Source: Bacillota bacterium (GTDB lineage Bacteria > Bacillota_I > Bacilli_A > RF39 > UBA660). Taken from it: a DNA stretch of 64,000 nt. The notes under the pieces are model-generated. The model worked only from the letters and a program-made list of their open reading frames with translations. It did not search any database and was not told the origin of the DNA. The stretch's first letter is position 1, and each line of letters opens with the position of its first letter. Positions 21,253 through 32,055 of this stretch are shown piece after piece. Position numbers and translations under genes: made by a program. The DNA lies in contig SVAX01000002.1 in assembly GCA_015059155.1 (NCBI GenBank), forward strand, positions 85,561 through 149,560, written 5' to 3'.

Positions 21253-21543
21253 ATGATTAATATAATTAAAGAAAAGCTCGAAATTGATGAAACTTTAAAA
21301 AGAAGATTAGAAATAATATGTGATTTTTGTAATACTACACCAGAAATTATAAATGGAAGTATTAGAAAAGTTGATAAAACTAATTTATCTTATATTGAAC
21401 CACATAGAATAATAATTAAAAATAATACATTTTTAATATTTAATTATTCTAATGAAGTTTATATTAATAATTTAAGTAAGAAAATTAAACTAAATGAACT
21501 AGAAAATTATATAAAAACTATGACTATTGACAAATCGTTATAA
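21253..21543 (+). CDS. Conserved small protein preceding LSR A (RDF/regulator candidate)
   Basis: Paralog of 27854-28138 (KTNLSYIEPH vs KTNLAYIEPH). Confidence 0.7.
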   Translation: MINIIKEKLEIDETLKRRLEIICDFCNTTPEIINGSIRKVDKTNLSYIEPHRIIIKNNTFLIFNYSNEVYINNLSKKIKLNELENYIKTMTIDKSL

Positions 21544-21718
21544 ATGAATTATTATATGAACCAATAAAGAAATTTACTTTATTAAGGGGATTATATGGTA
21601 ATAAAAAGGAATTATTTAAAACAAATTATTATTAATGAAATATTCGAGGCGTCAAAAGTTATTAGTTTTGTCTAATACTTTTGTCTCCTCTTTTTTTGAA
21701 AAAAGGGAGTGAAAAAAT

Positions 21719-23674
21719 ATGTATGATGAAAAGAAAATAGCAGGAATTTATGTTAGAGTTAGTACAGAAGAACAATCAAGAGAAGGATTCTCATTACAAG
21801 AACAAGAAAAGCGTTTAAAAGCCATGTGTGAGTACAAAGGTTATGAAGTTTATAAAATATATAAAGATGCTGGAATAAGCGCTAAAACAGGCAATAAACG
21901 TCCTGCATTTGAAGAATTACTTGAAGATATAAAAAATAAAAAATGTAATACTATTGTTGTATTAAAACTTGATAGACTTACTCGTTCAGTTATGGATTGG
22001 GAAAAGATTTTAACTTTTTTAGAAGAAAATAATGCTTATTTAGATTGTGCTAATGATGATATAAATACTACTAATGCAAATGGTAAAATGATTTCAAGAA
22101 TATTAACAAGTGTATCTCAACAAGAAATAGAAAGAACAAGTGAAAGAACTAAAATAGGATTAGCAGGAGCAATAAAAGCAGGACATATTCCTTATCAAGC
22201 ACCACTAGGTTATAAAAGAGTTGATAAAAAGTTAATTCCTGATTTAACTACAAAAAATATAGTATTAAGAATATTTGATTTATATCATAAAGGTAATTCT
22301 TACAAAAAAATAAGTAATATATTTAATGAAGAAAAAGTTTTAGGCAAAACTAACTGGTATGATTCTACTATTGTTGGAATATTACAAAATGAAATTTATA
22401 AAGGTGATTTCGTTCATGGAAAAAGAACAAAACATCCTACATATTACTCTAATGTAGTTGAACCACTTATATCAAAAGAAAAGTGGGAAGAATGTCAAGT
22501 TCAAAAGAAAAAGAATTCTAGGAGTTATCAAAGAACATTAACTTATCTATTCTTACAGAAACTTAAATGTCCTAAATGTAGTAGAATTTTAGGTGGTAAA
22601 GCAACAACTAAGAAAAATGGTAATTCATATTATTACTATTATTGTAATGATTGTAAAATCAATATAAAAGAAAATATAATAGAAAAATATATTGATGAAT
22701 TTATGAATGATATAGTTGAATATGATAGTGTTGTTAATCAATTCTTTCTACCTATGATTAAACAAAAATTAGAGAATCCTAAAGATGAAATACAAAAAGA
22801 AATTAAAAAACAAAATGATAAATTAAAAAGAATAAAAGATGCTTACATAAACGAAGTATTTACATTAGAAGAATATGATACTGAAAGAAAAAATGTTGAA
22901 AAAACTATTGAAGATTTAGAATTTAAACTAACTGAAACTGATATATGTGATATTTTAAAATTTACACCAGAAGATATATTAATAAAAAGAGATATTGATT
23001 TTATAAACTCAATTAAATACCCTAAAAAATATAAAGAATATAATAAGTCTTGGAAAGAGTTTAAAAGAGAAGAAAAAGCAAATCTTATTATGAGTTATAT
23101 AGAAGATATTAAATTAATTGAAACTAACAATAAAATAGAAGTTGACTTTGTTAATTTTAGAGAAAGTATAGCAAACCCTTGTAATGAACTTTACTATAAT
23201 GGATTTATTGATAGAACAGATTATGCTTTATTTGGAAATGTAATTGGAACATTAAGATATAGTGAGTATCGTCCAATTGAAGAAGTATGGCAACATCTTT
23301 TAAGATTAAGAGAATTCTATGATGTTAAGTTTTATGAAGCAACATATAACTTGAAACAACAAGTATTTAGATTTAGAACAGACTTTAATAAAACAATAGT
23401 AAGAGTATTCCCTATGGAAGATTATAAAAATATCGATCCTAATCAAAAATTAGAAGATTATAATTTAGGAATTATTTATATTGAAAATAATGATGAAACA
23501 TTAATGGAAAATAAAGAAGATGTATTTAATTACATACCAGATGAAGTGGAACTTCATGATGGTGGTTATGTAATTATAAAAGATGGGGAGTATGTAGATA
23601 GAAGTACAACAAAGGTAAAGCCTGTTACATTAAAAGGATTAGAAGAAACATTTTTAGAAGATGAAGAAGAATAA
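21719..23674 (+). CDS. Large serine recombinase (element A)
   Basis: YVRVSTEEQ catalytic Ser, KLDRLTR, CPKC..CNDC zinc ribbon, coiled coil. Confidence 0.95.
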
Positions 23675-23687
23675 AATGTGTGGCACG

Positions 23688-23855
23688 TTTTGCTCGCTTG
23701 CGAGTGAAAGTGGCGATAACATTTTATCAAGACTTTATGTAATTTTGTTTTATTACGAAGTTTTAAAACATTATGGAATAAAGTAAAACGGATTCTAAGG
23801 TGTACTTAGCCCACGAGGTTATTTTGATGCTTGCGTCAAAATACCTAGGGGGTTA
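23688..23855. promoter_or_regulatory. Putative oriT region upstream of MobV
   Basis: GC-enriched intergenic region with two hairpins sharing a GC-TT-GC tip (CTCGC-TT-GCGAG; TATTTTGATGC-TT-GCGTCAAAATA), directly 5' of the relaxase. Confidence 0.45.
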
Positions 23856-23897
23856 AATATTTTGTCTAAACAAAATATAGTCATAAAAAAGGAGTTG

Positions 23898-30073: not shown

Positions 30074-30292
30074 AAAATTTGGTACAAAACTATGTACCAA
30101 ACATTTTCAAAAAATAATCAATTTAAAGTACAAATTTAATGATTTTGTCATACAATTGTTAACACAAATGTTATAACAAATGTATGACATTGAATAAAAA
30201 CATTAATAACAAGGTAAGAATTTCCTAAAATTTTGTTATAACAAATGTCGGACACGCTATGTCAATGTCTGACATTTTTTAATTAAACAAAC

Positions 30293-30383
30293 CCTTTAAA
30301 TATAAAGGCAAACTACTCACTGGGTAGTTGTTTGTCTGACAAAATTATCCCGCTCTAAAATCATACACGACTTGGTACATAAA
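30293..30383 (+). promoter_or_regulatory. oriT-like conserved non-coding element, copy 1
   Basis: AACTACTC-ACT-GGGTAGTT hairpin (30311-30329), TATCCCGC (30346-30353), GGTACATAAA; homologous to 55722-55833 on the minus strand. Confidence 0.55.
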
Positions 30384-30455
30384 ATTGTTAAATTATGATT
30401 GATTTTAGAGAATAAAAACACATAAGCATTAAACTTATGTGTGTATTTTTATAAA

Positions 30456-31556
30456 TTATTTTTTTATACTAGATTCCTTATCTCTAACTATATTGTTTTC
30501 TCCATTTTGAATTCGATACCAATCTTGATAAGCTTTTCCTCGCTTAAGCAAAAATCTCTGACTTGAAGAAATTAAGTTACCTAACATTTTCTCGTATGAA
30601 AGCAATCCATCAAATTGAGGATCATAATTATAAGGTTTAACATTATTTAATAAAATATTTGTTTTACCATTCATACTACCTTTTATCCACTGTGATAATA
30701 AACCATTAGTATATAACCAATTTTCAACATTTTCATAGTCAAAAACACTATACATTTGATTCAAATATGAATATAATTCGTTAAGTGCTATGGTGTTGTC
30801 CTTATTTTTATTAGTCTTATGAGATGATACTCTTATACCCTCACCTTGATAACAAGAAAGAAAAATATTAGCAAGATTTACGCTTACACTAGAGGAAATT
30901 TCCCTAACATAATTTGAATCATCTAACTTATCTATGTCCAAATTATATTTAGTCCAAGGATTGAAATCATAGCCTCTTAATTCCGAAGTTACATTAAGTC
31001 TACCTTTCTCATCAATTGTTAAATTATAAATTATTTGTTCTTTATTGTTATAAGAATTTTTAGGATAAACTTTACAATTTCCATTTTCTTTTAAAGATTG
31101 AAATATATTAAATATTTGATTGCCATAATTAACAATTCGTTCTTCTTCTATTTCATTTTCTTCTTCTATTTCTAAATCCAATTTATTTTCTTCTTTTTTT
31201 TGTTTGTTTTCTTCTTTAAAATATAAATTATGAGTATCATAAGTCAAATATTCACTTTGTTCTTCAATTCCAAATTGATTTTTTAAATATAGATAAACAA
31301 ATTCTGATACCTTCTTTGCTGAGATTGAATCTATATTTTCAATATCTAATTCTAATCTTGTTAGTGGAGGTGTATTATAACCTTCTGCATTTATGTATAA
31401 TAAATCAATGCCTTTATGTATGTGAAACCATCTAGCACCACTATTTTTTACATTTAATTCTAACCAATTATCTATTTGTTCTTTTACATAGTTTAGCAAA
31501 TCTTCTGTTTGTGATAGAACAACTTTAATAATTTTTTCATTTTGACTATTTTTCAT
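30456..31556 (-). CDS. Hypothetical protein (cargo of element B)
   Basis: 366 aa ORF with GAGG RBS; no motif recognised. Confidence 0.6.
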   Translation of the reverse strand: MKNSQNEKIIKVVLSQTEDLLNYVKEQIDNWLELNVKNSGARWFHIHKGIDLLYINAEGYNTPPLTRLELDIENIDSISAKKVSEFVYLYLKNQFGIEEQSEYLTYDTHNLYFKEENKQKKEENKLDLEIEEENEIEEERIVNYGNQIFNIFQSLKENGNCKVYPKNSYNNKEQIIYNLTIDEKGRLNVTSELRGYDFNPWTKYNLDIDKLDDSNYVREISSSVSVNLANIFLSCYQGEGIRVSSHKTNKNKDNTIALNELYSYLNQMYSVFDYENVENWLYTNGLLSQWIKGSMNGKTNILLNNVKPYNYDPQFDGLLSYEKMLGNLISSSQRFLLKRGKAYQDWYRIQNGENNIVRDKESSIKK

Positions 31557-31770
31557 TTAGATAACCTCACTTCTTTTATGATTATATCATAAAAAATACT
31601 ATTTTTCATTACATTTTATAGATTTTATGCTATAATTGACATAGAAATTAACCATTCTACATTTTTCCAAATGTGGTTTGCTTATGCACCATTTAAAAAC
31701 AACTTACGGACCAATAGGTTTCGTAGGTTTTTATTTTATGTTCTCTTTTCTAGAAAGGAGAACATTTTTT

Positions 31771-32055
31771 ATGATTAAATTTAAAGTTATAGAAGAATTA
31801 AAAACTAATACTGAATTACTAGAACTTTTAGAAAATTACGCTTACACAACTAAAAAAGGACAAATTAAATATTTAACTAATACCAATCTAAAATTCATAA
31901 AACCTATTGAATATATAGTCAAATCCCCTACTGTTCTTACTATATACGAATACAAAGTAAACGAAATAAGCAATAAACCATTTTATATCAAAGAACTTAA
32001 TCAAAAATATAATCTTACTGAACTTAAAGAAATATTAATAAAATTTAAAAATTAG
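31771..32055 (+). CDS. Divergent small protein preceding LSR C
   Basis: ATG behind AAGGAG; same position and size (94 aa); NLKFIKP and KYNLTELK resemble NLSYIEP and KIKLNELE. Confidence 0.6.
   Translation: MIKFKVIEELKTNTELLELLENYAYTTKKGQIKYLTNTNLKFIKPIEYIVKSPTVLTIYEYKVNEISNKPFYIKELNQKYNLTELKEILIKFKN

Follow-up and report, generated by a model that had tools for sequence, protein, structure and literature searches.

A tRNA-proximal family of small proteins linked to large serine recombinases in uncultured gut Firmicutes, and its possible role in recombinase control

The 64-kb stretch of DNA analysed here (contig SVAX01000002.1, positions 85,561 to 149,560; hereafter the window, whose own numbering is used throughout) carries three stacked mobile elements, A, B and C, each of which encodes a small protein of 94-97 amino acids (aa) between its left attachment site (attL) and its large serine recombinase (LSR). 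These small proteins belong to a large, unannotated family that has no detectable structural relatives and is coupled to one integrase clade. We tentatively propose that they act as LSR-binding directionality or control factors, comparable in role to recombination directionality factors (RDFs), whose production would be tied to the integration state of the element by read-through from a host tRNA gene. An earlier reading of the same DNA (the first-pass annotation) had described the layout attachment site, hairpin, ribosome-binding site (RBS), open reading frame (ORF) of 94-97 aa and LSR in all three tandem elements, and every part was found in its place. New here are the promoter contrast between the small ORF and the LSR gene, the linkage count from the LSR side, a second structural model, ratios of nonsynonymous to synonymous substitution rates (dN/dS), the distance correlation and the analysis of remnants.

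A family of small proteins under purifying selection

The small ORFs and the LSR genes that follow them are:

21253..21543, + strand: small ORF A, 96 aa (ORF list, alignment; AlphaFold model)
27854..28138, + strand: small ORF B, 94 aa from ATG 27854, or 97 aa from TTG 27845 (ORF list; both lengths occur in relatives)
31771..32055, + strand: small ORF C, 94 aa (AlphaFold model)
21719..23674, + strand: LSR A, 651 aa (Pfam Resolvase 1.3e-34, Recombinase 1.5e-17, Zn_ribbon_recom)
28292..30073, + strand: LSR B, 593 aa (Pfam)
32270..34057, + strand: LSR C, 595 aa from ATG 32270; the ORF finder gave GTG 32243, 604 aa (Pfam)

Small ORF C was listed as a 125-aa ORF from TTG 31678; about 100 relatives, every one of them 94 aa long, place its true start at ATG 31771. 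A GGA or GGAG RBS precedes each small ORF. The proteins of A and B are 49% identical and those of A and C 33%, and the alignment of all three has 22 invariant columns, including G35, T43-N44-L45 and P50. It agrees with the first-pass annotation in showing the motif KTNL(S/A)YIEPH in A and B with C divergent, the C version being NTNLKFIKPI. Near-invariant polar residues of the family mix lysine and glutamate (K16, E20, T43, N44, E49, E68, K77, E82), and the protein is mildly basic (median isoelectric point 9.0, net charge +3).

With a median dN/dS of 0.19 over 679 pairs, the small ORF encodes a real protein under purifying selection. A profile search (E <= 0.01) returned at least 3,947 clusters at 90% identity, none with a name or a Pfam domain, and an exhaustive HMMER search of 1.84 billion representatives (E <= 0.001) returned 686 clusters at 50% identity. 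The suggestion of a conserved new family is thereby borne out, as is the earlier statement that no known family could be recognised: Pfam, NCBIfam and PHROGs gave nothing at E <= 0.001, the best match being phrog_4386, of unknown function, at E = 0.0039, and A, B and C had no Pfam match at E <= 0.1, the TnpV model PF14198 and DNA-binding domains included. A sequence profile run against the PDB gave no credible match, the only one under E = 0.3 being an unrelated mitochondrial complex I subunit (E = 0.003).

The AlphaFold models of A and C (predicted local distance difference test score, pLDDT, 85 and 87.7; predicted template modelling score, pTM, 0.72 and 0.74) are concordant, with the order beta1-alpha1-(six or seven strands)-alpha2. 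Neither contains a helix-turn-helix (HTH), a ribbon-helix-helix (RHH) or another recognised nucleic-acid-binding fold. Foldseek searches of the two models against the PDB and BFVD gave nothing below E = 0.1 (best PDB matches 0.64 and 3.3, best BFVD match 0.1), the only faint resemblance being to helix-on-curved-sheet proteins of the cystatin/monellin, LolA and VirB8/TraE kinds.

The family is confined to uncultured gut Firmicutes, with related records labelled Bacilli, 'Tenericutes', Ca. Onthousia and similar, and no member of it was found among 72,556 plasmids or 50,697 phage records. It occurs in 15 of 399 sampled genomes of the phylum, eight of those 15 lying among the 16 genomes sampled from the window's family, and in 16 of 26 genomes of the window's genus, with up to seven copies each. 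Longer members were considered as informative domain fusions and set aside, being deletion fusions to the C terminus of the Mob relaxase, insertions of insertion-sequence or phage genes, or chimeric contigs. In four members (P0128, P0177, P0184 and P0265) the small ORF is joined in frame to the C-terminal part of Mob, and such fusions show recurrent deletions that take out the LSR gene and the start of mob.

The small gene and the LSR gene stay together

All three LSRs have Resolvase, Recombinase and Zn_ribbon_recom domains, and these LSRs carry roughly 180-residue, TnpX-like C-terminal extensions. Across 80 genome loci, an LSR gene lies directly downstream of 64 of 77 assessable small-ORF copies, at a median gap of 235 nt; the other 13 copies belong to decayed elements: the LSR of L102 is truncated at its N terminus, L052 has a Mob fragment, the LSR of L040 is inverted and comes from another insertion, and others are solo ORFs. 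Viewed from the recombinase, in 61 related genomes, 21 LSRs share 45% identity or more with LSR A, and 19 of them have the small ORF directly upstream, the two exceptions being one gene at a contig break and one fragment. C-type LSRs, just 28-30% identical to LSR A, likewise have a small ORF; shorter, unrelated LSRs have none. The profile search and neighbourhood check proposed in the first-pass annotation thus returned homologs that are linked to LSRs in both directions.

Copies only 37-46% identical to A retain the order tRNA, small ORF, LSR, Mob, and pairwise distances among small proteins track those among LSRs (r = 0.95, 45 pairs, zero mismatched pairs). Among LSR segments the zinc ribbon and coiled coil correlate highest (0.92-0.93), with small differences between segments. 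Genes inserted between the small ORF and the LSR gene are tolerated, and neither of the two is lost (L039/L047).

Solo copies of the small ORF, without an LSR, are common behind tRNA genes, and about seven of 47 matches are pseudogenised, with internal stops or as fragments. One solo copy is a C-type small ORF right after tRNA-Leu in genome G010 (L119, G010:C55), from which the LSR C gene (about 32155-34176 of the window) is cleanly gone, with flanks 88% and 98% identical to window positions 31686-35164; compared with window copy C, this copy has a dN/dS of 0.34. Solo copies are to be expected, since deletions cannot extend into the essential tRNA gene 110 nt away and the ORF therefore stays, and we read them as remnants rather than as a sign of a host-level function.

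In another solo example, one identical 94-residue C-type protein (the P0371 module, L136-L141) is listed in 49 collection blocks, of which 22 carrying contigs were read. Here an 83-residue resolvase stub adjoins the small ORF, and the module lies behind tRNA-Gly and also internally in a stack; it is a widespread derivative lacking the LSR, and may be moved in trans.

Three elements stacked at a tRNA CCA end

The source genome, of an uncultured gut bacterium, is 1.0 Mb in 17 contigs, and the window has a G+C content of about 24%. A tRNA-Leu(CAA) gene follows scpA and scpB, and at its CCA end a variable island of about 20 kb begins (21153-41290); synteny with relatives is regained only near 41300, with G009 and G026 rejoining at about 41300-41700. 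The main landmarks, besides the genes above, are:

21066..21152, + strand: tRNA-Leu(CAA), target of integration, with element A starting directly behind its CCA (ARAGORN; Rfam tRNA, 57.8 bits)
21147..21153, + strand: junction 1, attL of element A, with the GCACCAT core (7-mer search)
21153..21223, + strand: left-end module of A: conserved arm TTGACGAATCTGTTCGAAC, small palindrome at 21164-21180 and, at 21192-21223, terminator hairpin AAATCAATC..GATTGATTT with T-run (folding z = -2.7; stem covariation; terminator scan)
23862..25277, + strand: MobV (Mob_Pre) relaxase of element A (PF01076, 1.8e-11)
27700..27765, + strand: right end of A, which is junction 2, with a palindrome (27704-27723) and the arm GTTGTAGATAACTACGACAATCGCACCA, an arm also found in L002/L004/L071
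31686..31765, + strand: junction 3 (GCACCAT) and left end of C, with two T-run hairpins, the second of which (31738-31765) sequesters the RBS of small ORF C (z = -5.4; terminator scan)

The tRNA 3' end extended by one base gives the 7-mer GCACCAT, which occurs five times in the window against 1.6 expected, and its copies at 21147, 27759 and 31686 are exactly the three element junctions; this recurrence marks the three stacked elements. All three share the part order junction, T-run hairpins, RBS, ORF of 94-97 codons and LSR, and the recurrence of the same layout in the 80 genome loci and in diverged members places it far beyond chance. By Pfam, element A has a Mob_Pre relaxase; B and C have none.

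Insertion at tRNA ends is the habit of these elements in general. Of 79 assessable copies, 48 start 102-181 nt (median 109) downstream of a same-strand tRNA gene, counted from its last base, and most of the remainder sit at tandem junctions. The targets comprise at least 14 different tRNA genes (Leu four times, Gly two or three times, Thr three times, Gln, Arg, Cys, His and Trp), with near-identical element left ends behind different ones. The conserved left end reads, in order, tRNA ...CCA, TTGACGAATCTGTTCGAAC, a short covarying palindrome, a covarying T-run terminator hairpin, RBS and ATG. The arms at the A/B junction form a pseudo-palindrome, CGACAA-TCGCACCA-TTGACG, around the core, which is how a serine-recombinase site centred inside the terminal GCACCA of the tRNA would be expected to look.

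Small palindromes in the element arms (GTTCGAAC..TTCGAAC; GTAGATA.CTAC) resemble the tRNA T-arm GGTTCGAnTCC (L036-L115, L146-L154) and may be how one LSR reads many tRNA genes. A heptamer palindrome, ATCAATC/GATTGAT, flanking the attP of A was considered as a pair of binding sites and dropped, the palindromes of L002, the second element for which both ends were available, lying in the same places with different sequences on the two sides. After the tRNA-Leu gene of G024 there are about 45 nt of C-type left end, TTTAAAAACAACTTACG..CGTAAGTTTTTATTTTA (L117, G024:C36). We rejected the view of G024 as an empty site, with C starting after a 'native' terminator: since the left end of element C recurs behind tRNA-Gly in L136, of a different lineage, same hairpin included, the G024 sequence is a C-type scar and the junction at 31686 stands.

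A small gene with no promoter of its own and an LSR gene with a strong one

Promoters were scanned as sigma-70-type matches scored out of 12, the region upstream of the small ORF running from the CCA end to the ATG (mean 117 nt). A match of at least 10/12 was present in just one of 44 unique upstream regions, whereas 52 of 63 intervals around the small-ORF stop codon had one, 25 of these reaching 11/12; in A, B and most relatives the predicted LSR promoter lies at, or no more than 40 nt from, that stop. The predicted signals of the LSR genes in the window are:

21527..21555, + strand: LSR A promoter TTGACA-17-TATTAT (11/12), which overlaps the final codons of small ORF A (promoter scan)
28121..28148, + strand: LSR B promoter TTGACA-16-TAAAAT, with TG, which overlaps small ORF B at its end (promoter scan)
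21595..21697, + strand: leader of LSR A, in which a 26-codon upstream ORF (21595-21675) extends into the terminator hairpin at 21646-21690, itself followed by T7 (leader and fold scans)
32113..32254, + strand: direct repeats (A)AGTGAGGTATATA, three copies in the interval from small ORF C to LSR C; the third overlaps the LSR RBS (repeat families D7, D17)

Hairpins with T-runs precede small ORFs A, B and C (folding z -2.7, -4.1 and -5.4), and the RBS of the small ORF is buried in a hairpin in C and partly so in B. Judged by these signals, the small gene is predicted to be promoterless and insulated by terminators, and the LSR gene to be a separate unit with a strong promoter. Lacking a promoter and preceded by terminator hairpins, the small gene would have to be transcribed by read-through from outside the element, the probable source being the tRNA gene for the first element of a stack and, for the others, whatever adjoins the junction. 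Right ends of elements have no conserved outward-reading promoter (5 of 21, at scattered positions).

The LSR leader contains a conserved hairpin (AAUAAA..UUUAUU), an upstream ORF with its own Shine-Dalgarno sequence and a T7-tailed terminator hairpin just before the LSR RBS. The upstream ORF has 15-26 codons, and in 39 of 59 unique leaders its stop codon falls within this terminator hairpin, frequently as the TAG of the conserved loop motif TATTAG; this arrangement (21527-21721, 28121-28294, L036-L115) looks like translation-coupled attenuation. In C-type elements the A/B-type terminator leader is replaced by the repeats AAGTGAGGTATATA, which cover the LSR promoter and RBS region at spacings of about 52 and 63 nt, two copies being kept in G010; they could be operators or repeated promoters. 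An antisense promoter match of 11/12 (TTGTCA-16-TATAAT, 21506-21533, minus strand) points into small ORF A, back-to-back with the LSR promoter, and may be a chance occurrence in AT-rich DNA.

Resemblance to known systems

The closest likeness is to Tn4451 and Tn4453 of Clostridium (TnpX, TnpV and the Mob/Pre protein TnpZ), which are likewise small and chromosomal, with the LSR gene at the left end and a MobV/Mob_Pre relaxase gene after it. The Tn4451/Tn4453-type combination of LSR and MobV in one small element is found in A, with B and C having the LSR only; the long C-terminal extension of the LSR is another shared trait. C-type relatives, moreover, encode TnpV (PF14198, E = 9e-22) right after the LSR, which is the order tnpX-tnpV (L142-L144 8290-8610; L139 770-1132). 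In the window, a TnpV remnant after LSR C was ruled out, element C having two short unrelated ORFs there. The small proteins are not TnpV: they have no Pfam match to PF14198, and TnpV is a separate gene behind the LSR in the relatives. The best LSR matches in the 72,556 plasmids are at most 34% identical. TnpX has low target specificity and needs no other protein of the element (PMC5704250), whereas the elements described here insert at tRNA CCA ends. In that account Tn4451 is given no gene between its left end and tnpX.

The small proteins also resemble RDFs such as SPbeta SprB, A118 gp44, TP901-1 Orf7, phiC31 gp3 and Bxb1 gp47 in being small, element-encoded, poorly conserved and coupled to one integrase lineage. 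RDFs bind the integrase at its zinc-ribbon domain or at the base of its coiled coil, stimulating attL x attR recombination and inhibiting attP x attB. Like an RDF, the small protein is encoded in the integrase's own element, as the first gene inside attL in A, B and C and in 64 of 77 related copies. Known RDFs, however, are encoded by phages and expressed under lytic control, unlike a promoterless gene next to attL, and the small proteins have no sequence or fold similarity to any PDB chain; nor do they have detectable similarity of either kind to the known RDF families (SprB/gp44-like, gp3-like, gp47-like and Xis-type winged helix). RDFs of large serine integrases share no common fold among themselves (PMC12286644, PMC11795197).

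Control that depends on the state of an attachment site has precedents. In sib retroregulation of phage lambda, expression of a recombination gene depends on whether the genome is integrated or circular, the controlling signal lying across the att site, and Lyras and Rood reportedly described in 2000 a joint promoter of Tn4451, a regulatory signal split by the att site. The present case would differ from both in that the external signal would be the promoter of a host tRNA gene and the gene controlled would be the small ORF, not the recombinase.

Possible functions of the small protein

LSRs of this clade place small mobilizable elements behind the CCA of tRNA genes, and in the mechanism that we favour the small gene, first inside attL behind terminators, would be read through from the host tRNA gene once its element is integrated first in line. 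The protein would then bind the recombinase and set when, or in which direction, recombination runs, the recombinase itself being made separately from its own strong promoter behind an attenuator-like leader. The linkage in both directions down to 33% identity, together with retention of the ORF while Mob and cargo vary, appears to favour a recombinase-binding factor. The position of the gene would point the same way, being consistent with an RDF-like gene that is on only in the integrated state, and the lack of similarity to RDFs does not exclude such a role, because known RDFs adopt many unrelated folds (PMC12286644). The first-pass annotation had named an RDF, a DNA-bending factor or a repressor: the connection with the LSR on which that list was based stands, and the choice among the three does not follow from proteins that resemble neither solved structures nor RDFs and that have no HTH-like fold. 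We regard an RDF as a reasonable candidate.

Several points weigh against this proposal. Neighbouring genes are co-inherited whatever their function, and the C-type relatives carry, in the TnpV gene directly after the LSR gene, another candidate cofactor. The premise that LSR excision usually needs an RDF, true of phage integrases, fails for the closest known mobilizable elements: TnpX of Tn4451/Tn4453 recombines in both directions without any RDF, and for integrative mobilizable elements with serine integrases no RDF has been identified (PMC5704250). Long C-terminal extensions, such as those of the LSRs described here, have moreover been suggested to exclude RDF binding or to accompany the absence of an RDF (PMC12286644).

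The promoterless place behind attL fits the logic of a repressor as well as that of an RDF. Under such an alternative, the main rival, which we consider unlikely, protein made by tRNA read-through would regulate LSR expression, shutting down the LSR promoter or favouring termination in its leader, and a newly arrived element, having no such protein, would express the LSR and integrate. A near-consensus promoter abuts the small-ORF stop, and so strong a promoter needs a brake; the leader offers a means, given its conserved terminator hairpin and the upstream ORF that so often ends inside it, and the three direct repeats over the promoter and RBS region of C-type LSRs could be operators. The mildly basic protein would also suit a regulator of expression. 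Yet it has no HTH, RHH or other nucleic-acid-binding fold and no Foldseek match, several of its conserved surface residues are acidic, and the invariant motif (KTNLxYIEP) is common to A, B and C types whose LSR leaders are wholly different, with terminators in A and B and direct repeats in C. One invariant surface is unlikely to read such different leaders, which weakens the case for a repressor and argues for an invariant partner such as the LSR rather than a DNA or RNA operator. The conserved polar residues, lysines and glutamates among them, and a modelled fold without an HTH would likewise suit a protein-protein surface better than a DNA-binding one.

Solo copies raise another idea, that the protein acts on competitors or on the target, as an exclusion or immunity factor against related incoming elements or as a target-selection factor guiding the LSR to the tRNA end. 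Intact LSR-less copies are indeed common behind tRNA genes, the G010 copy retains a dN/dS of 0.34 against window copy C, and near-identical elements use many tRNA genes, so that some shared feature of tRNA genes must be recognised. We nevertheless think this improbable: the geometry explains solo copies too, as LSR deletions stop short of the essential tRNA gene, and pseudogenised solo copies occur. With up to seven copies per genome and tandem stacks, exclusion could be at best subtype-specific, and LSRs normally read their own sites unaided, with the T-arm-like palindromes of the att arms there to be read. We give as little credence to the view that the gene travels beside the LSR as a mere neighbour and serves something other than recombination, be it cargo, anti-defence or upkeep of the excised circle. 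In its favour, family, PDB-sequence and Foldseek searches gave no biochemical clue of any kind, and co-inheritance alone cannot separate function from adjacency; but cargo is highly variable and Mob dispensable, as in B and C, while the small ORF stays with the LSR across A, B and C types in constant position and orientation, even where insertions have come between the two.

Returning to the LSR-binding factor, it is possible, though on balance doubtful, that these proteins would constitute a new class of serine-integrase cofactor driven by host-tRNA read-through. Such a cofactor would be made when the element is integrated and not when it is excised or newly arrived, a built-in switch on integration state that would give recombination its direction.

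Implications

Serine integrases are leading tools of genome engineering, and reversible circuits built on them are limited by the scarcity of known RDFs. If the proposed role is correct, the family would contain the first RDF of an integrative mobilizable element, supply many orthogonal integrase-RDF pairs and give a directionality switch to a very large integrase clade that targets tRNA CCA ends. The family in any case accompanies an integrase clade that is unusual in choosing the CCA ends of many different tRNA genes for its insertions, and the regulatory logic suggested by the promoterless place of the small gene next to a tRNA gene is simple and testable. Whether it encodes an RDF, a repressor or something else, the small gene is the obvious place to start in asking how these very abundant elements are controlled.

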